A DNA stretch of 64,000 bases from a phage. The stretch is from sequence record PZ452578.1. One strand, written 5' to 3'. This document shows, piece by piece, positions 10,905 to 62,513 of this stretch (position 1 is its first letter; every line of letters begins with the position of its first letter). Below the pieces are notes generated by a model. The model worked only from the letters and a program-made list of their open reading frames with translations, did no database searches and was not told the origin of the DNA. Position numbers and translations under genes: made by a program.

Positions 10905-10992
10905 GTTATCGAGTTGGTGCCATTATATACATCATTTTCTGATTGTGTTTTGTGTGCTTTCAAAATGAAGAAAGGGGCCGAAGCACCTACGA

Positions 10993-31475: not shown

Positions 31476-31813
31476 TAGAACCTCATCTGAAACCCATGTG
31501 ATTTAACATTACCGCCATTAATATCAGAACTATTAATTTCGCGTGCAATTGAGGGATCAATGTCAATTTCGCCATTAAGTTTAATGATAGACAAAGTATC
31601 ACGCCCATTTACAGTGCGAAACTCTAAAGGACAAACCACATCAACGTAGTTTTTAATCGATTCACTGGTAGGTTGCAAATGAGCAGGAAGGTCTTTGGAC
31701 GCCTTTGAGAAAACCACTTCACAGAAATTTTTACGGGTATCAAAATAAGTAGTCATAAACATAGTATTTTCCTCAGTAAGGGGCCGAAGCCCCTCATTTA
31801 TTTTAAATATCAA
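31475..31813 (-). CDS. Hypothetical protein
   Basis: 112 aa ORF in the 30.x cluster. Confidence 0.65.
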   Translation of the reverse strand: MIFKINEGLRPLTEENTMFMTTYFDTRKNFCEVVFSKASKDLPAHLQPTSESIKNYVDVVCPLEFRTVNGRDTLSIIKLNGEIDIDPSIAREINSSDINGGNVKSHGFQMRF

Positions 31814-51982: not shown

Positions 51983-54900
51983 ATGGCCGAGATTAAAAGA
52001 AAGTTCAGAGCAGAAGATGGTCTGGACGCAGGTGGCGATAAAATAATCAACGTAGCTTTAGCTGATCGTGCCGTAGGAACTGACGGTGTTAACGTTGATT
52101 ACTTAATTCAAGAAAACACAGTTCAACAATACGATCCAACTCGTGGATATTTAAAAGATTTTGTAATCATTTATGATAACCGCTTTTGGGCTGCTATAAA
52201 TGATATTCCAAAACCAGCAGGAGCTTTTAATAGCGTACGCTGGAGAGCGTTACGTACTGATGCAAACTGGACAACTGTTTCATCAGGACCTTATCAATTA
52301 AAATCGGGTGAATCAATTTCAGTTGATACTGCAGCTGGTAATGACATTACATTTACTTTACCATCTACCCCAATTGACGGTGATACTATCGTTCTCCAAG
52401 ATATTGGAGGAAAACCTGGAGTTAATCAAGTTTTAATTACAGCTCCGGTACAAAGCATTGTAAATTTTAGAGGTCAGCAAGTACGTTCAGTACTAATGAC
52501 TCATCCAAAATCACAGATAGTTTTAATTTTTAGTAATCGTCTGTGGCAAATGTATGTCGCTGATTATAGTAGAGAAGCTGTAGTTGTAACGCCTGCGAGT
52601 CTCTATCAGGCTCAATCAAACGATTTTATCGTACGTAGATTTACTTCTGCTTCAGCAATTAATATTAAACTTCCAAGATTTGCCAATCATGGCGATATTA
52701 TTAATTTCGTTGATTTGGATAAATTAAATCCTCTTTATCACACAATTGTTACTACATATGATGAAACAACTTCAGTACAAGAAGTTGGAACTCATTCCAT
52801 TGAAGGTCGTACATCGATTGACGGTTTCTTGATGTTTGATGATAATGAGAAATTGTGGAGATTGTTTGACGGGGATAGTAAAGCACGTTTACGCATTATA
52901 ACAACTAATTCTAATATTCGTCCAAATGAAGAAGTCATGGTATTTGGCGCGAATAATGGAACAACCCAAACAATTGAACTTCAGCTTCCGACTGATATTT
53001 CTGTTGGTGATACTGTCAAAATTTCCATGAATTACATGAGAAAAGGACAAACGGTTAAAATCAAAGCTGCAGGTGAAGATAAAATTGCTTCTTCAGTTCA
53101 ATTGCTGCAATTCCCAAAACGCTCAGAATATCCACTTGAAGCTGAGTGGGTTACAGTTCAAGAATTAGTTTTTAACGGTGAAACTAATTATGTTCCAGTT
53201 TTGGAGCTTGCTTATATTGAAGATTCTGATGGAAAATATTGGGTTGTACAGCAAAACGTTCCAACTGTAGAAAGAGTAGATTCTTTAAATGATTCTACTA
53301 GAGCAAGATTAGGGGTAATTGCTTTAGCTACACAAGCTCAAGCTAATGCTGATTTAGAAAATTCTCCACAAAAAGAATTGGCAATTACTCCAGAAACGTT
53401 AGCTAATCGTACTGCTACAGAAACTCGTAGAGGTATTGCAAGAATAGCAACTACTGCTCAAGTTAACCAGGATACTACATTCTCTTTTGCTGATGATATT
53501 ATCATCACTCCTAAAAAGCTGAATGAAAGAACAGCTACTGAAACTCGCAGAGGTGTTGCTGAAATTGCTACACAGCAAGAAACTAATACAGGAACCGATG
53601 ATACTACAATCATCACTCCTAAAAAGCTTCAAGCTCGACAAGGTTCTGAATCATTATCTGGTATTGTAACTTTTGTATCTACTGCAGGTGCTACTCCAGC
53701 TTCTAGCCGTGAATTAAATGGTACGAATGTTTATAATAAAAACACTAATAATTTAGTTGTTTCACCTAAAGCTTTGGATCAGTATAAAGCTACTCCAACA
53801 CAGCAAGGTGCAGTAATTTTAGCAGTTGAAAGTGAAGTAATTGCTGGACAAAGTCAGGAAGGATGGGCAAATGCGGTTGTAACGCCAGAAACGTTACATA
53901 AAAAGACATCAACTGATGGAAGAATTGGTTTAATTGAAATTGCTACGCAAAGTGAAGTTAATACAGGAACTGATTATACTCGTGCAGTCACTCCTAAAAC
54001 TTTAAATGACCGTAGAGCAACTGAAAGTTTAAGTGGTATAGCTGAAATTGCTACGCAAGTTGAATTCGACGCAGGCGTCGACGATACTCGTATCTCTACA
54101 CCATTAAAAATTAAAACCAGATTTAATAGTACTGATCGTACTTCTGTTGTTGCTCTATCTGGATTAGTTGAATCAGGAACTCTCTGGGACCATTATACCC
54201 TTAATATTCTTGAAGCAAACGAGACACAACGTGGTACACTTCGTGTAGCTACACAGGTCGAAGCTGCTGCAGGAACATTAGATAATGTTTTAATAACTCC
54301 TAAAAAGCTTTTAGGTACTAAATCTACTGAAGCGCAAGAAGGTGTTATTAAAGTTGCAACTCAGTCTGAAACTGTGACTGGAACGTCAACAAATACTGCT
54401 GTATCTCCAAAAAATTTAAAATGGATTGTGCAGAGTGAACCTACTTGGGCAGCAACTACTCTGATAAGAGGTTTTGTTAAAACTTCATCTGGTTCAATTA
54501 CATTCGTTGGTAATGATACGGTAGGTTCAACACAGCCATTAGAATCATATGAGAAAAATAGCTATGCAGTATCACCATATGAATTAAACCGTGTATTAGC
54601 AAATTATCTGCCGTTAAAAGCAAAAGCTGTAGATAGTAATTTATTGGATGGTCTAGATTCATCTCAGTTCATTCGTAGGGATATTGCACAGACGGTTAAT
54701 GGTTCACTAACCTTAACCCAACAAACGAATCTGAGTGCCCCTCTTGTATCATCTAGTACTGCTACGTTTGGTGGTTCAGTTACGGCAAATAGTGTACTAA
54801 CTATTTCTAATACTGGAACAGAAACTCATCTGATTTTTGAGAAAGGACCTCAAACTGGAACTAACCAAGCACAGACGGTGACTATTAGAGTGTGGGGTAA

Positions 54901-55852
54901 TCAATTTAGTGGGGAATCAGATACAACACGTTCTACTGTATTTGAAGTTGGTGATGAAACGTCTAATCACTTTTATTCTCAGCGCAATAAAGCTGGAAAT
55001 ATAACATTTAATATCAATGGTACAGTAACACCTATAAATGTTAATGCTTCAGGAACATTGAATGCAAATGGTGTAGCAACATTTGGTAATTCAGTCACTG
55101 CAACTGGTGAAATTATTTCTCGAAGCGCAAATGCTTTCCGTGCTATTAACGGAAATTATGGTTTCATTGTTCGCAATGATGGATCAGTAACGAATTTTAT
55201 GCTTACTGCATCGGGTGATCAGACTGGTGGATTTAATGGATTACGTCCTTTAGCTATTAATAATGCATCTGGCCAAGTAACGATTGGCGAAAGCTTAATT
55301 ATTGCCAAAGGTGCTACTATAAATTCAGGCGGTTTAACTGTTAACTCGAGAATTCGTTCTCATGGTACTAAAACATCTGATTTATACACCCGCGCGCCAA
55401 CATCTGATACTGTAGGATTCTGGTCAATCGATATTAATGATTCAGCTACTTATAACCAGTTCCCAGGTTATTTTAAGATGGTTGAAAAAACTAATGAAGT
55501 GACTGGACTTCCATACTTAGAACGTGGCGAAGAGGTTAAATCTCCTGGTACATTGACTCAGTTTGGTAACACACTTGATTCGCTTTACCAAGATTGGATT
55601 ACTTATCCAACTACCCCAGAAGCACGCACCACTCGCTGGACACGTACATGGCAGAAAACCAAAAATTCTTGGTCAAGTTTTGTTCAGGTATTTGATGGGG
55701 GTAACCCTCCTCAGCCATCTGATATTGGTGCTTTACCATCTGATAATGCTATAATGGGGAATCTTACTATTCGTGATTTCTTACGAATTGGTAATGTTCG
55801 CATTATTCCTGACCCAGTGAATAAAACGGTTAAATTTGAATGGGTTGAATAA
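51983..55852 (+). CDS. 34: Long tail fibre proximal subunit gp34
   Basis: 1289 aa, T4 gp34 length; internal tandem peptide repeats. Confidence 0.93.
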   Translation: MAEIKRKFRAEDGLDAGGDKIINVALADRAVGTDGVNVDYLIQENTVQQYDPTRGYLKDFVIIYDNRFWAAINDIPKPAGAFNSVRWRALRTDANWTTVSSGPYQLKSGESISVDTAAGNDITFTLPSTPIDGDTIVLQDIGGKPGVNQVLITAPVQSIVNFRGQQVRSVLMTHPKSQIVLIFSNRLWQMYVADYSREAVVVTPASLYQAQSNDFIVRRFTSASAINIKLPRFANHGDIINFVDLDKLNPLYHTIVTTYDETTSVQEVGTHSIEGRTSIDGFLMFDDNEKLWRLFDGDSKARLRIITTNSNIRPNEEVMVFGANNGTTQTIELQLPTDISVGDTVKISMNYMRKGQTVKIKAAGEDKIASSVQLLQFPKRSEYPLEAEWVTVQELVFNGETNYVPVLELAYIEDSDGKYWVVQQNVPTVERVDSLNDSTRARLGVIALATQAQANADLENSPQKELAITPETLANRTATETRRGIARIATTAQVNQDTTFSFADDIIITPKKLNERTATETRRGVAEIATQQETNTGTDDTTIITPKKLQARQGSESLSGIVTFVSTAGATPASSRELNGTNVYNKNTNNLVVSPKALDQYKATPTQQGAVILAVESEVIAGQSQEGWANAVVTPETLHKKTSTDGRIGLIEIATQSEVNTGTDYTRAVTPKTLNDRRATESLSGIAEIATQVEFDAGVDDTRISTPLKIKTRFNSTDRTSVVALSGLVESGTLWDHYTLNILEANETQRGTLRVATQVEAAAGTLDNVLITPKKLLGTKSTEAQEGVIKVATQSETVTGTSTNTAVSPKNLKWIVQSEPTWAATTLIRGFVKTSSGSITFVGNDTVGSTQPLESYEKNSYAVSPYELNRVLANYLPLKAKAVDSNLLDGLDSSQFIRRDIAQTVNGSLTLTQQTNLSAPLVSSSTATFGGSVTANSVLTISNTGTETHLIFEKGPQTGTNQAQTVTIRVWGNQFSGESDTTRSTVFEVGDETSNHFYSQRNKAGNITFNINGTVTPINVNASGTLNANGVATFGNSVTATGEIISRSANAFRAINGNYGFIVRNDGSVTNFMLTASGDQTGGFNGLRPLAINNASGQVTIGESLIIAKGATINSGGLTVNSRIRSHGTKTSDLYTRAPTSDTVGFWSIDINDSATYNQFPGYFKMVEKTNEVTGLPYLERGEEVKSPGTLTQFGNTLDSLYQDWITYPTTPEARTTRWTRTWQKTKNSWSSFVQVFDGGNPPQPSDIGALPSDNAIMGNLTIRDFLRIGNVRIIPDPVNKTVKFEWVE
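53390..54425 (+). repeat. Tandem degenerate repeats of about 36 codons inside gene 34
   Basis: About seven copies of the pattern T-x-x-R-G-x-x-x-I-A-T-x-x-E-x-x-x-G-T-D-x-T-x-x-x-T-P-K-x-L in the gp34 translation. Confidence 0.75.
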
Positions 55853-55860
55853 GAGGTATT

Positions 55861-56976
55861 ATGGAAAAATTTATGGCAAAGTTTGGACAAGGATATGTCC
55901 AAACGCCATTTTTATCGGAAAGTAATTCAGTAAGATATAAAATAAGCATAGCGGGTTCTTGCCCGCTTTCTACAGCAGGACCATATGTCAAATTTCAGGA
56001 TAATCCTATTGGAAGTCAAACATTTAGCACAGGACTTCATTTAAGAGTTTTTGACCCTTCTACAGGAGCATTAGTTGATAGTAAGTCATATGCTTTTTCG
56101 ACTTCAAATGATACTACATCAGCTGCTTTTGTTAGTTTCATGAATTCTTTTTCAAACAACAGACTTGTTGCTATATTAACAAGTGGAAAGGTTAATTTTC
56201 CTCCTGAGGTAGTATCTTGGCTAAGATCCGCGGGAACGTCTGCTTTTCCATCTGATTCTATATTGTCAAGATTTGACGTATCATATGCTGCCTTTTATAC
56301 TTCTTCTAAAAGAGCTATTGCATTAGAACATGTTAAACTAAGTAATAGAAAAAGCACAGATGATTATCAAACTATTTTAGATGTTGTATTTGATAGTTTA
56401 GAAGACGTTGGAGCTACCGGGTTTCCAAGAAGAACGTATGAAAGCGTTGAGCAATTTATGTCAGCGGTTGGTGGAACTAATAACGAAATTGCACGTTTAC
56501 CAACTTCATCCGCGATAAGTAAATTATCTGATTATAATTTAATTCCTGGCGATGTTCTTTATCTTAAAGCGCAGCTATATGCTGATGCCGATTTACTTGC
56601 GCTTGGAACTACAAATATATCTATCCGTTTTTATGATGAATCGAATGGATATATTTCTTCAACACATGCTGAGTTTACTGGACAAGCTGAGTCATGGGAA
56701 TTAAAGGAAGACTATGTAGTTGTTCCTGAAAATGCAGTAGGATTTACGATATATGCACAAAGAACTGCACAAGCAGGTCAAGGTGGCATGAGGAATTTAA
56801 GTTTTTCTGAAGTATCAAGAAATGGCGGAATTTCAAAACCTGCAGAATTTGGCGTCAATGGTATTCGAGTTAATTATGTCTGTGAATCTGCTTCACCTCC
56901 AGATATAATGGTACTTCCTACACAAGCATCGTCTAAAACTGGTAAAGTGTTTGGACAAGAATTTAGAGAAGTTTAA
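55861..56976 (+). CDS. 35: Long tail fibre hinge connector gp35
   Basis: 371 aa versus 372 in T4; synteny 34-35-36-37. Confidence 0.88.
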   Translation: MEKFMAKFGQGYVQTPFLSESNSVRYKISIAGSCPLSTAGPYVKFQDNPIGSQTFSTGLHLRVFDPSTGALVDSKSYAFSTSNDTTSAAFVSFMNSFSNNRLVAILTSGKVNFPPEVVSWLRSAGTSAFPSDSILSRFDVSYAAFYTSSKRAIALEHVKLSNRKSTDDYQTILDVVFDSLEDVGATGFPRRTYESVEQFMSAVGGTNNEIARLPTSSAISKLSDYNLIPGDVLYLKAQLYADADLLALGTTNISIRFYDESNGYISSTHAEFTGQAESWELKEDYVVVPENAVGFTIYAQRTAQAGQGGMRNLSFSEVSRNGGISKPAEFGVNGIRVNYVCESASPPDIMVLPTQASSKTGKVFGQEFREV

Positions 56977-57038: not shown

Positions 57039-57695
57039 ATGGCTGATTTAAAAGTAGGTTCAACAACCGGAGGCTCTGTCATTTGGCATCAAGGAAATTT
57101 TCCATTGAATCCAGCCGGTGACGATGTACTCTATAAATCATTTAAAATATATTCAGAATATAACAAACCGCAGGCTGCTGATAACGATTTTGTTTCTAAA
57201 GCTAATGGTGGTACTTATTTAAATAAAGTAATTTTTAATAAAGGAATGACTGTTCCTGGCGCAGGGTCAGGCGATAATGGTATTTTTGCTGGTCCTGGTG
57301 ATAGTGCCACGTATGATACTACAAATATGGATATTGTTTCGTGGTATGGTATTGGTTTTAAATCATCACAAGGAACAGCAGGTAGAACTGTAGTAATTAA
57401 CACACGAAATGGAGATATTAGCTCAAAGGGCGTAATTGAAGCATCACAAATCCGTGTAACTTCGTTATCACCAGTAAATAATTATGACCTTACGCGGAAA
57501 GATTATGTTGATGGAGCAATAAATATTGTTACAGCAAACGCAAACTCTAGGGTATTACGCTCTGGAGACACTATGACAGGAAATTTAACTGCGCCAAACC
57601 TTTTTTCACAGAATCCTGCATCTCAACCCTCACATGTTCCACGATTTGATCAAATTGTTATTAAGGATTCTGTTCAAGATTTCGGCTATTATTAA
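57039..57695 (+). CDS. 36: Long tail fibre distal connector gp36
   Basis: 218 aa versus 221 in T4. Confidence 0.88.
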   Translation: MADLKVGSTTGGSVIWHQGNFPLNPAGDDVLYKSFKIYSEYNKPQAADNDFVSKANGGTYLNKVIFNKGMTVPGAGSGDNGIFAGPGDSATYDTTNMDIVSWYGIGFKSSQGTAGRTVVINTRNGDISSKGVIEASQIRVTSLSPVNNYDLTRKDYVDGAINIVTANANSRVLRSGDTMTGNLTAPNLFSQNPASQPSHVPRFDQIVIKDSVQDFGYY

Positions 57696-57703
57696 GAGGA
57701 CTT

Positions 57704-60700
57704 ATGGCTACTTTAAAACAAATACAATTTAAAAGAAGCAAAACTGCAGGAGCACGTCCTGCCGCTTCAGTATTAGCCGAAGGTGAATTGGCTATAAACT
57801 TAAAAGACCGTGTACTTTTTACTAAAGATGACCAAGGAAATATTATTGATTTAGGTTTTGCTAAAGGCGGTAGCATTGACGGGAATGTTATTCATAAAGG
57901 CAATTATAACCAAACTGGTGATTATACTTTAAATGGCACATTCACTCAGACAGGTAATTTTAATTTAACTGGTATTGCTCGAGTAACTCGTGATATTATT
58001 GCCGCCGGGCAGATTATGACTGAAGGCGGAGAACTTATTACAAAAAGTTCAGGTACAGCGCATGTTCGTTTTTTCGATGGCAATAGTCGCGAACGTGGAA
58101 TCATTTATGCCCCGGCTAATGACGGTTTAACTACACAAGTACTTAATATCAGGGTTCAAGACTATGCCGCTGGTAGCGAAAGCACTTATGCATTTTCAGG
58201 CAGTGGCCTATTTACTTCACCTGAAGTATCAGCATGGAAATCTATTTCGTCTCCACAAATTCTGACCGACAAAGTCATTACAGACGGGAAGAAGGCAGGC
58301 GATTATGACATCTATTCATTAGCAAATAACACCCCATTATCTGAAAGCACTACTGCTATTAATCATCTTCGTGTCATGCGTAATGCAGTCGGTTCTGGTA
58401 TTTTCCATGAAGTTAAAGATAATGATGGGATAACCTGGTATGCCGGTGACGGGTTGGAGGCTTATCTTTGGTCGTTTACGTGGTCCGGTGGGTTGAAAGC
58501 GGGTCATTCTATTTCTATAGGTACCCCAGGCGGTCCAAAAGGATATTCTGAATTAGGAACGGCCTCAATTGTTCTTGGGGATAATGATACCGGATTTAAA
58601 TGGCATCAGGACGGATATTATTTCAGCGTTAATAATGGAACAAAAACGTTTTTATTTAGTCCCAGCGAAACAACTAGCCTAAGAAAATTTGTAGCTGGAT
58701 ATTCTACTAATGGAACCGATTTAACTACTCCTCCAACTGAAAATTATGCTCTTGCTACTGTCGTGACATATCACGATAATAACGCGTTTGGAGATGGCCA
58801 GACTCTTTTAGGATATTATCAAGGCGGTAATTATCATCATTATTTCCGCGGTAAGGGTACCACAAACATTAATACTCATGGCGGTTTGTTAGTTACTCCA
58901 GGTAATATTGATGTTATTGGCGGTTCTGTTAATATTGATGGTATAAATAATGCTTCTACCCTGCTATTTAGAGGCAACACAACTGGTAGTAGTTCAGTTG
59001 ATAATATGACAATTTCCGTTTGGGGCAATACGTTTACTAATCCTAGTGTAGGTAATCGTAAAAACGTCATGGAAATTTCTGATGCAACTAGTTGGATGAG
59101 CTATATTCAAAGACTTACAACAGGTGAAGTAGAAATGAACGTTAATGGTTCATTTGAATCATCTGGTGTTACTGCTGGAAATAGAGGAGTTCACACAACA
59201 GGCGAAATTTCATCTGGTGCAGTGAATGCGCTTCGCATTTGGAATGCAGATTATGGAGCCATTTTTAGACGTTCAGAAGGTAGTCTTCATATTATTCCAA
59301 CTGCTTACGGTGAAGGTAAACACGGCGATATCGGTCCACTTCGCCCATTTAGTATGGCTTTAGATACTGGTAAAGTTACTATTCCAGATTTACAATCAAG
59401 TTACAATACGTTCGCTGCTAACGGTTATATTAAATTTGTTGGTCATGGAGCGGGTGCCGGCGGTTATGACATTCAATATGTTCAAGCGGCTCCTATTTTC
59501 CAGGAAATCGATGATGATGCTGTAAGCAAATATTATCCTATTGTTAAACAGAAGTTTCTAAACGGTAAATCCGTTTGGTCTTTAGGTACTGAAATTAATT
59601 CAGGTACATTCGTTATTCATCATCTGAAAGAAGATGGTTCACAAGGCCATACGTCTCGTTTTAATCAAGACGGTACTGTTAACTTCCCAGATAACGTTCA
59701 GGTCGGCGGCGGTGAAGCTACTATTGCTCGTAATGGTAATATTTTCTCAGATATTTGGAAACCGTTTACTTCTGCCGGTGATACTACAAATATTCGCGAT
59801 GCTATTGCGACTCGTGTTTCGAAAGAAGGCGACACGATGACCGGTAAGTTGATTATTAGAAGAGATTCTGACGCTATTAACTTAGCTGCGCCTTCGACAA
59901 CTGATGCAAGTTACCTTCTTTCTACAGGAGCTGGTGAAAATCTATGGTATATTGGTAAAGGCGGCGCTGATAATACTGTATCATTCTACAACTATAAAAC
60001 CAGTGGGGCTGTGCAAATTAACTCTATTGGTGAAATCGCGCTGATTCCACAAGGTGCTGCAACATTTAACTTCAACCGCGATCGTCTCTATATAAATGGG
60101 TCTCAATGGACTGCACATCAAGCTGGTGACTGGGTTAACCAATGGCGTCAAGAAGCTCCTATATTTGTGGATTTTGGTAGTGTCGGCAATGACTGCTATT
60201 ATCCTATTATTAAAGGAAAATCTGTTATTACGAATGAAGGATACGTATCTGGTGTTGATTTCGGTATGCGCCGTATCACTAACCAATGGGCTCAGGCTAT
60301 TATTCGTGTTGGTAACCAGGAAAATGCTAGCGATCCGCAAGCTATCTTCGAATTCCACCATAATGGAAACATGTACGTTCCTGACATGGTTAAAGCTGGA
60401 GTAAGATTATCAGCTGGTGGAGGTGACCCTGCATGGACAGGCGCATGTGTTGTTATTGGTGATAATGACACTGGGTTAGTTCATGGCGGTGACGGTCGTA
60501 TTAACATGGTTGCAAATGGAGTGCATATTGCTTCATGGTCGGCCGCTTACCATCTCCATGAAGGTCTTTGGGATACCACTGGTGCTTTGTGGACTGAACA
60601 AGGAAGAGCTATTATTTCTTTTGGTCATTTAGTCCAACAAAGCGATGCCTATTCCACATTTGTCCGCGATGTTTATGTCCGTTCTGATATTCGTGTTAAA

Positions 60701-61018
60701 AAAGACCTTGTTAAATTTGAAAATGCTTCTGAGAAGCTTTCTAAAATTAACGGTTACACTTATATGCAGAAGCGAGGCCTAGATGAAGAAGGCAATCAGA
60801 AATGGGAACCTAACGCCGGTTTGATAGCTCAAGAAGTTCAAGCTATTTTGCCTGAATTAGTTGAAGGTGACCCTGATGGCGAAGCTTTACTTCGTTTGAA
60901 CTATAACGGTGTAATTGGTTTAAATACAGCTGCAATCAATGAGCATACTGCAGAAATTGCGGAACTTAAATCAGAAATTGAAGAACTTAAAGCATTAGTT
61001 AAATCATTGTTAAAATAA
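57704..61018 (+). CDS. 37: Long tail fibre distal subunit gp37 with C-terminal chaperone-like domain
   Basis: 1104 aa; N-terminus [46 protein letters not shown] typical of gp37; C-terminal 115 aa resembles self-cleaving intramolecular chaperone domains and ends in a coiled-coil-like stretch. Confidence 0.9.
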
Positions 61019-61023
61019 TAAGA

Positions 61024-61037
61024 GGGGCTTCGGCCCC
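61024..61037 (+). other. GC hairpin between genes 37 and 38, no U-tract
   Basis: GGGGC-TTCG-GCCCC followed by TTGGAGG (the gene 38 RBS); may be an RNA stability or processing element rather than a terminator. Confidence 0.5.
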
Positions 61038-61049
61038 TTGGAGGTTTAT

Positions 61050-61826
61050 ATGGCAGTAACAGGACCGTGGGTAGGATCGTCTGCAGTAGTTAATACAGGA
61101 CAAAATTGGATGGGTGGCGCGGCCCAACGATTAAGAATGGGTGCTCCATTTTGGATGAGTAATATGATAGGTCGATCTGTTGAAATAATTCACACGCTTG
61201 GAGCAGACCATAACTTCAATGGTCAATGGTTCCGAGATAGATGTTTTGAGGCAGGTAGTGCACCTATAGTGTTTAATATCACTGGAGATTTAGTATCATA
61301 TTCTAAAGATGTTCCTTTATTCTTCATGTATGGAGATACACCGAATGAATATGTTCAGTTGAATATACACGGCGTAACGATGTATGGACGTGGCGGTAAT
61401 GGCGGTAGCAATAGTCCTGGTTCAGCTGGGGGTCATTGTATTCAAAATGATATTGGTGGGAGACTAAGAATTAATAATGGCGGAGCTATTGCTGGAGGTG
61501 GCGGTGGCGGCGGCGGCGGATATTATTCTCCTTTTTCACGAATGAGATTGACTTTTGGCGGGGGCGGCGGGCGTCCGTTTGGCGCACCGGGCGGATCTAT
61601 TGATATGCAATCAGGAGCAACTGCTGGTACTATTTCTGCGCCTGGCGCAGGGTCTGTGAACGGTATCTATAGCGGCGGTGGCGGTGGCGAAGTTGGCTCC
61701 GCAGGAGGTAGATGTAATATTCGTGGTCAAGGATCTGAATACGACGGCGGAGCTGCTGGTTATGCCGTCATAGGGTCTACACCGACATGGCAAAACGTTG
61801 GAGCAATATATGGTCCAAGAGTATAA
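61050..61826 (+). CDS. 38: Receptor-recognising adhesin gp38 (T2-type, glycine-rich)
   Basis: ORF track starts at a TTG; the ATG at 61050 has a GGAGG RBS and gives 258 aa; C-terminal half has several Gly runs (GGGGGGGG, GGGGG, GGGGG) separated by short variable segments. Confidence 0.85.
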
Positions 61827-61856: not shown

Positions 61857-62513
61857 ATGGCAGCACCTAGAATATCATTTTCGCCCTCTGATATTCTGTT
61901 GGGTGTTCTAGATCGCTTGTTCAAAGATAACGCTACCGGGAAGGTTCTTGCTTCCCGAGTAGCTGTCGTAATTCTTTTATTTATGATGGCGATTGTTTGG
62001 TATAGGGGAGATAGTTTCTTTGAGTACTATAAGCAATCAAAGTATGAAACATACAGTGAAATTATTGAAAAGGAAAGAAATGCACGCTTTGAATCTGTCG
62101 CCCTGGAACAACTCCAGATAGTTCATATATCATCTGAGGCAGACTTTAGTGCGGTGTATTCTTTCCGCCCTAAAAACTTAAACTATTTTGTTGATATTAT
62201 AGCATACGAAGGAAAATTACCTTCAACAATAAGTGAAAAATCACTTGGAGGATATCCTGTTGATAAAACTATGGATGAATATACAGTTCATTTAAATGGA
62301 CGTCATTATTATTCCAACTCAAAATTTGCTTTTTTACCAACTAAAAAGCCTACTCCCGAAATAAACTACATGTACAGTTGTCCATATTTTAATTTGGATA
62401 ATATCTATGCTGGAACGATAACCATGTACTGGTATAGAAATGATCATATAAGTAATGACCGCCTTGAATCAATATGTGCTCAGGCGGCCAGAATATTAGG
62501 AAGGGCTAAATAA
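61857..62513 (+). CDS. t: Holin t
   Basis: 218 aa, T4 T holin length; single N-terminal transmembrane segment; downstream of 38. Confidence 0.9.
   Translation: MAAPRISFSPSDILLGVLDRLFKDNATGKVLASRVAVVILLFMMAIVWYRGDSFFEYYKQSKYETYSEIIEKERNARFESVALEQLQIVHISSEADFSAVYSFRPKNLNYFVDIIAYEGKLPSTISEKSLGGYPVDKTMDEYTVHLNGRHYYSNSKFAFLPTKKPTPEINYMYSCPYFNLDNIYAGTITMYWYRNDHISNDRLESICAQAARILGRAK

Follow-up and report, generated by a model that had tools for sequence, protein, structure and literature searches.

C-terminal intramolecular chaperone domains are described for K1F endosialidase, the GA-1/phi29 neck appendage and T5 pb1 (Schulz et al. 2010; PMC4690869). Processing of gp37 was first shown for T2 in 1986 (Drexler, Riede and Henning, as cited in PMC3157838), and for T2 and T6 the later account, again citing the 1986 work, describes a gp37 that is cleaved and a gp38 that then caps the tip. 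In S16, gp37 autocleaves its intramolecular chaperone (IMC), which exposes the docking surface for gp38 (PMC7917993). The S16 cut lies at DLNVS^SDRRIKK, where the caret marks the bond, and a cut at DVYIR^SDGRLKI is predicted for the Yersinia fPS phages (PMC7917993). The architecture of the S16 gp37 tip is given in PMC6851490 and the docking strand, DVYIR or DLNVS, in PMC7917993; the tryptophans of S16 gp38 plug into pockets on the cleaved tip (PMC6851490, PMC7917993). A structural explanation of the S16 IMC is credited to Dunne et al. 2018 in the relevant sections of PMC7917993 and PMC6851490.

In T5 pb1 the bond that is cut is Thr1263-Ser1264, and a Ser1264Ala change blocks cleavage (PMC4690869). 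Ser1264 is the proposed nucleophile and Lys1269, at a spacing of +5, the proposed activating base; a trimeric coiled coil, more polar towards the fibre, runs through the centre of the chaperone (PMC4690869). In the passages of PMC7917993, PMC4690869 and PMC3157838 that deal with it, autoproteolytic release following trimer folding, and the need for the domain in folding, are given as experimentally shown for the S16, T5, K1F and T2 homologues.

The window analysed here is a 64,000-nucleotide stretch of phage DNA (record PZ452578.1). A canonical T-even (Tequatrovirus) long-tail-fibre locus occupies its right end on the plus strand, with the gene order gp34-35-36-37-38-t (Table 1). PHROG 1699, 'long tail fiber protein distal subunit', matches gp37 over its full length (E = 0). 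The Enterobacteria phage RB27 shows 97.9% DNA identity to gp37-gp38 and 97.8% to the last 25 kb of the window, which makes the phage a Tequatrovirus closely related to RB27. The codon of R993 starts at 60680 and the TAA stop of gp37 is at 61016-61018; the interval 60680-61018 contains 112 codons and the stop. We also looked for an overlapping or antisense gene, and no ORF of at least 50 aa in the other frames overlaps this interval.

Table 1. Coordinates of the long-tail-fibre genes, of the predicted functional elements of gp37 and of the recurrences of the junction hairpin core (positions in the window).
Feature	Coordinates	Strand	Basis
gp34	51983-55852	+	ORF listing and profile matches
gp35	55861-56976	+	ORF listing and profile matches
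gp36	57039-57695	+	ORF listing and profile matches
Gene 37, long tail fibre distal subunit, 1104 aa, 119.0 kDa precursor	57704..61018	+	ORF; PHROG 1699
Mature fibre distal tip, residues ~913-993, ending in strand DVYVR	60440..60682	+	Aligned to 6F45 chain residues 25-93
Predicted scissile bond R993/S994, codons CGT TCT	60680..60685	+	Alignment with S16 and fPS sites, T5 pb1 and 3GUD
Ser994, predicted catalytic nucleophile	60683..60685	+	Conservation; equivalent to T5 Ser1264
Lys999, predicted general base (Ser+5)	60698..60700	+	Conservation; T5 Ser1264/Lys1269 spacing
Intramolecular chaperone (Peptidase_S74) domain, S994-K1104, 111 aa, 12.3 kDa, predicted to be released	60683..61015	+	PF13884; whole-length alignment to S16 IMC
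C-terminal helix, five continuous heptads, predicted trimeric coiled coil	60914..61015	+	Heptad analysis; AF2 helix
Gene 38, T2-type tail-fibre adhesin, 258 aa	61050..61826	+	PF05268, PF21721; ATG after GGAGG Shine-Dalgarno
Holin t	61857-62513	+	ORF listing and profile matches
Hairpin-core recurrences	31780-31793 and 10974-10987	-	GGGGCTTCGGCCCC match

Two further modules are found in the fibre genes. A copy of PF21446 (Gp34_trimer) is present in gp37 residues 450-550 (59051-59353, E = 1.1e-7). It also occurs in T4 and T2 gp37, and the module is therefore common to the proximal and distal half-fibres. Residues 58-127 of the hinge protein gp35 match PF15711 (ILEI, interleukin-like EMT inducer / FAM3 fold) with E = 5.5e-8 and 33.6 bits, compared with a gathering score of 27.

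When the C-terminal segment of gp37 is searched in isolation, residues 994-1053 match PF13884 (Peptidase_S74, 'chaperone of endosialidase') with E = 1.4e-14 and a score of 54.6 bits, where the gathering score is 22, and positions 1-57 of the 58 in the profile are covered. A sequence-only reading of this DNA had proposed a chaperone-like domain here, to be checked by a search for the peptidase S74 / intramolecular chaperone family; that search is clearly positive, and all the peptide strings quoted for the C-terminus are found in frame in the 57704-61018 (+) ORF. The domain itself is thus upheld, while its length had been put at 115 residues and comes to 111-112 by codon count.

Solved structures of IMCs are reached as well. 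With phmmer, the S16 gp37 tip construct (PDB 6F45) matches the last 212 residues of gp37 with E = 6.3e-44 and aligns to the final residue. A profile made from 27 sequences of the domain finds 6F45 (6e-35), the MYRF ICA 7DC3 (5e-13), the tail fibre 8JOV (9e-11), the released GA-1 neck-appendage chaperone 3GUD (4e-7) and the tailspike 6EU4 (8e-3). The profile is needed for the last three, as a single-sequence search of the PDB gives only 6F45 and, weakly, MYRF. The chains of K1F endosialidase and T5 pb1 are not recovered from the PDB by this profile at E <= 0.01, and the comparison with them therefore rests on the literature (PMC4690869).

The gp37 chaperone domain is a member of a very large and well-characterised family, and represents ordinary, already known biology. 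An exhaustive phmmer search against 1.84 billion cluster representatives returns 16,565 homologues at E <= 0.001, and many otherwise unrelated fibre proteins share this C-terminal block in alignments to PHROG tail-fibre families. Among the 169 domain hits in the best 158 proteins, 133 end at most 15 residues from the protein C-terminus; in gp37 the stop codon coincides with the end of the Peptidase_S74 domain, the same extreme C-terminal placement as in the family. The exhaustive search was used for the conservation analysis instead of a word-indexed one, which gave only 10 proteins, most of them fragment gene calls of 170 aa, and could not support a good alignment. These public 170-aa entries, 'tail fiber domain-containing protein [Escherichia coli]', are the C-terminal piece of gp37 starting from an internal Met. 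They sit on contigs of ~166-167 kb that appear to be phage genomes deposited under E. coli, and gene calling seems to have split gp37 or cut it short in these records.

At the N-terminal edge of the domain we find an intact Ser/Lys motif, S994-D-I-R-V-K999 (S-D-x-x-x-K). Over 162 aligned homologous domains, Ser994 is conserved in 159, and Asp995 and Lys999 in 161 each. Further into the domain all 162 have G1039, A1042 and P1050, and 161 share Q1043. From the aligned sites, the expected cut in gp37 is DVYVR993^S994DIRVKK, between nucleotides 60682 and 60683, and the masses computed for this cut are 106.7 kDa for the mature chain and 12.3 kDa for the fragment. The chain of 3GUD, the crystallised free GA-1 chaperone, begins with SDERHK. 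No counterpart of the T5 'folding sensor' residues Arg1250 and Asp1239 could be mapped onto the gp37 sequence.

The domain ends in a long helix. A single heptad register runs without a break through the last 34 residues of gp37, the a positions being I, I, I, I, V and the d positions N, H, L, L, L; 8 of the 10 a/d positions are hydrophobic, compared with 12% of the other positions. As in T5 pb1, the fibre-proximal end of the heptads is the more polar one. An AF2 model of residues 980-1104 (125 aa) contains a single helix over query positions 88-124, which are residues 1067-1103, with a pLDDT of 92-93 in the last blocks. The terminal coiled coil expected at this end of gp37 is thus supported by both the heptads and a predicted helix with pLDDT above 90.

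The rest of this model is poor. For the monomer, predicted from an alignment of 7 sequences, the mean pLDDT is 60.4 and query residues 1-45 are below 50. A Foldseek search of this low-confidence monomer against the PDB finds nothing at E <= 0.001, and ribosomal or irrelevant matches at E > 1. Most likely this is a consequence of the domain being an obligate intertwined trimer and of the shallow alignment. The outcome is uninformative and is not evidence against the Peptidase_S74 assignment, and the structural assignment therefore rests on the profile links to solved IMCs.

We compared the tip with those of T4, T2 and S16. In a control profile search PF13884 is present in the gp37 of T2 and S16 and absent from that of T4, which instead contains the Collar (PF07484) and fibre-repeat (PF03335) families. 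Neither of these two families is found by profile search in the gp37 of this phage. In the same way, the gp38 proteins of T2 and S16 match PF05268 and PF21721, while T4 gp38 matches neither. T4 has its genes at the same locus position and the N-terminal and shaft part of its gp37 is homologous, including the Gp34_trimer module. However, its Collar / His-rich fibre-repeat tip, without S74, binds the receptor itself, and its gp38 is an unrelated assembly chaperone, in contrast to the adhesin found here.

The S74 domain together with a gp38 adhesin therefore places the locus in the gp38-adhesin (T2/T6/S16) type and not in the T4 type. The receptor-binding module had been called T2-type rather than T4-type; this holds for the broad gp38-adhesin class but not for the subtype. 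The IMC of gp37 is 57% identical to that of S16, 36% to T2 and 31% to T6, and judged by these identities the subtype is nearer to S16 than to T2.

The approximately 80 residues of gp37 that precede the chaperone are homologous to the beta-helical tip of S16 on which gp38 docks (6F45). The protein that would dock here matches PF05268 with E = 9.6e-71 and the attachment-domain family PF21721 with E = 2e-21. Its N-terminal attachment domain consists of residues 1-40, including W7, W20 and W35, and the remainder is the glycine-rich specificity domain. In an alignment of gp38 from this phage, T2 and S16 the three tryptophans are invariant, and the poly-Gly runs are conserved as well. That a T2-type tip is capped by gp38 after processing, as the sequence-only reading assumed, agrees with the literature, in the parts of PMC3157838 and PMC7917993 that describe it.

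The junction between the two genes has features of its own. Gene 37 ends in a double in-frame stop, TAATAA (61016 onward), followed by a GC-rich hairpin with a UUCG tetraloop (GGGGC-TTCG-GCCCC, 61024-61037), a GGAGG Shine-Dalgarno sequence (61040-61044) and the gp38 ATG at 61050. The upstream TTG (61038) that the ORF list gives as the start of gp38 is probably wrong. Stable C(UUCG)G intercistronic hairpins are known from T4, and the hairpin core resembles these. The minimum free energy of 61010-61055 is -14.1 kcal/mol (z = -1.29). We considered the hairpin as a terminator and rejected it given this z-score and the lack of a T-run; without a T-run it is not a classic terminator. The 14-nt core, GGGGCTTCGGCCCC, has one further exact copy and one copy with a single mismatch in the window; by chance none would be expected. 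The fibre loci of T2, T6, T4 and S16 do not contain it.

By analogy with the homologues, the maturation of the fibre may proceed as follows. The C-terminal domains would bring three nascent gp37 chains into register, with the terminal helices forming a trimeric coiled coil, and this register would nucleate the folding of an interdigitated triple beta-helix at the fibre tip. After correct folding of the trimer, Lys999 would activate Ser994 for attack on the R993-S994 bond in each chain, and a chaperone trimer of 12.3-kDa chains would be released. One copy of gp38 would then cap the flat tip that this release lays bare and that ends in DVYVR, docking through its N-terminal W7, W20 and W35 and carrying the receptor-binding glycine-rich domain. 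Every step of this scheme is carried over from homologues, and what gp37 itself contributes are features of its sequence.

In general the evidence points to gp37 residues S994-K1104 being a Peptidase_S74 C-terminal intramolecular chaperone that is autocleaved so that gp38 can cap the tip, and we put the probability of this reading at about 0.93. By comparison with the homologues, gp37 very probably cleaves itself through Ser994 and Lys999 and releases the chaperone. It could instead be that the S74-like domain is inactive or retained, as a permanent C-terminal trimerisation module on a mature gp37 of full length. In some members of the family the domain is indeed internal, with 24 of the 169 hits in the best 158 proteins lying more than 50 residues from the C-terminus. 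However, the Ser-Asp-x-x-x-Lys motif is intact in gp37 and this phage has kept the docking tryptophans of gp38, both of which speak against this reading. Further, the docking surface for gp38 in S16 is available only after the IMC has been released (PMC7917993), and in T5 a retained chaperone blocks receptor binding (PMC4690869). We regard a retained or inactive domain as improbable.

Even less probable is that gp37 is cut by a separate phage or host protease, with the C-terminal domain serving only as a recognition or propeptide segment. Recombinant S16 gp37, T5 pb1 and K1F endosialidase cleave themselves in E. coli, and in recombinant homologues the replacement of one Ser by Ala is enough to abolish self-cleavage (PMC7917993, PMC4690869). 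The Ser/Lys pair of the self-cleaving proteins is conserved in gp37, which also speaks against a separate protease, although the title of Drexler et al. 1986, as cited in PMC3157838, has 'proteolytic processing' and does not itself specify autocatalysis. Finally, the resemblance to S74 might be a chance or low-complexity match caused by the coiled coil; the helix alone does draw spurious matches, as seen from a weak DivIC coiled-coil match under the cutoff (E = 0.041). The PF13884 match, however, lies upstream of the helix and is 30 bits over the gathering score, and together with the 6F45 match, the 16,565 homologous clusters and the reach of the profile to solved IMCs it refutes this explanation, whose probability is practically nil.

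The different parts of the locus do not have the same relatives. Overall gp38 is 86% identical to that of T6, but over its first 45 residues the identity is only 59% with T6, compared with 64% with S16. The identities of the IMC and of gp38 point to different phages, which makes the locus a mosaic and agrees with the modular view given in PMC3157838: the cassette resembles that of S16 (57% IMC identity), and the specificity domain attached to it resembles that of T6 (86% gp38 identity). The specificity domain of gp38 thus seems to be exchanged independently of the tip, the chaperone and the attachment domain. The mosaic pattern of gp37-gp38 was largely anticipated by Trojet et al. 2011. It is a speculative and improbable extension that the gp37 tip, chaperone and gp38 attachment domain may move as one co-adapted cassette, independently of the specificity domain, and that the released 12.3-kDa trimer might have a later, hypothetical role, such as gating or assisting the loading of gp38.

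Among phages, conservation is higher in the chaperone (60683-61015), predicted to be cleaved off, than in the mature tip that it would fold. The chaperone is found at 99% identity or higher in 73 records of the phage collection, while no record there contains the preceding 101 residues (60380-60682) at that level, the best being 97%.

The chaperone tail of gp37 raises no new biological question; its practical use lies in annotation and engineering. With R993 as the C-terminus of mature gp37, the docking surface for gp38 is predicted to end in DVYVR. For recombinant fibres or adhesin swaps, the 111-residue chaperone would be needed for folding and be absent from the product. As the receptor-binding module depends on gp38, host range should be placed in gp38 and not in gp37.

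Compared with known systems, the locus resembles S16 in having the same gene, position and gp37-gp38-t order, the SDxRxKK motif, a terminal helix and, next after gp37, a gp38 adhesin in which the three tryptophans recur. The differences are that the residue before the scissile bond is Ser in S16 (DLNVS/S) and Arg here (DVYVR/S), that the upstream tip is only ~40% identical with an insertion of ~12 residues, and that gp37 is 749 aa in S16 against 1104 aa here. With T2 and T6 it shares genus and locus, the C-terminal S74 domain in gp37, a VYIR/SDxRLK site and the gp38 cap; however, the T2 IMC is shorter (99 aa), in addition to the lower identities of both. In MYRF, the ICA (PDB 7DC3) is a homologous domain (E = 5e-13 with the family profile) that also trimerises and cleaves itself, but it is found inside a membrane-bound transcription factor and not in a virion fibre, and not at the extreme C-terminus. 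K1F endosialidase, the GA-1/phi29 neck appendage and T5 pb1 belong to the same Pfam family and have the Ser/Lys(+5) dyad (PMC4690869), and like gp37 as predicted here they are cut just before the Ser, carry a C-terminal trimeric coiled coil and release the chaperone after the trimer has folded. Their sequences are distant, and after release those proteins bind or degrade the receptor directly, whereas here the release would expose the site where gp38, a separate and monomeric adhesin, docks.
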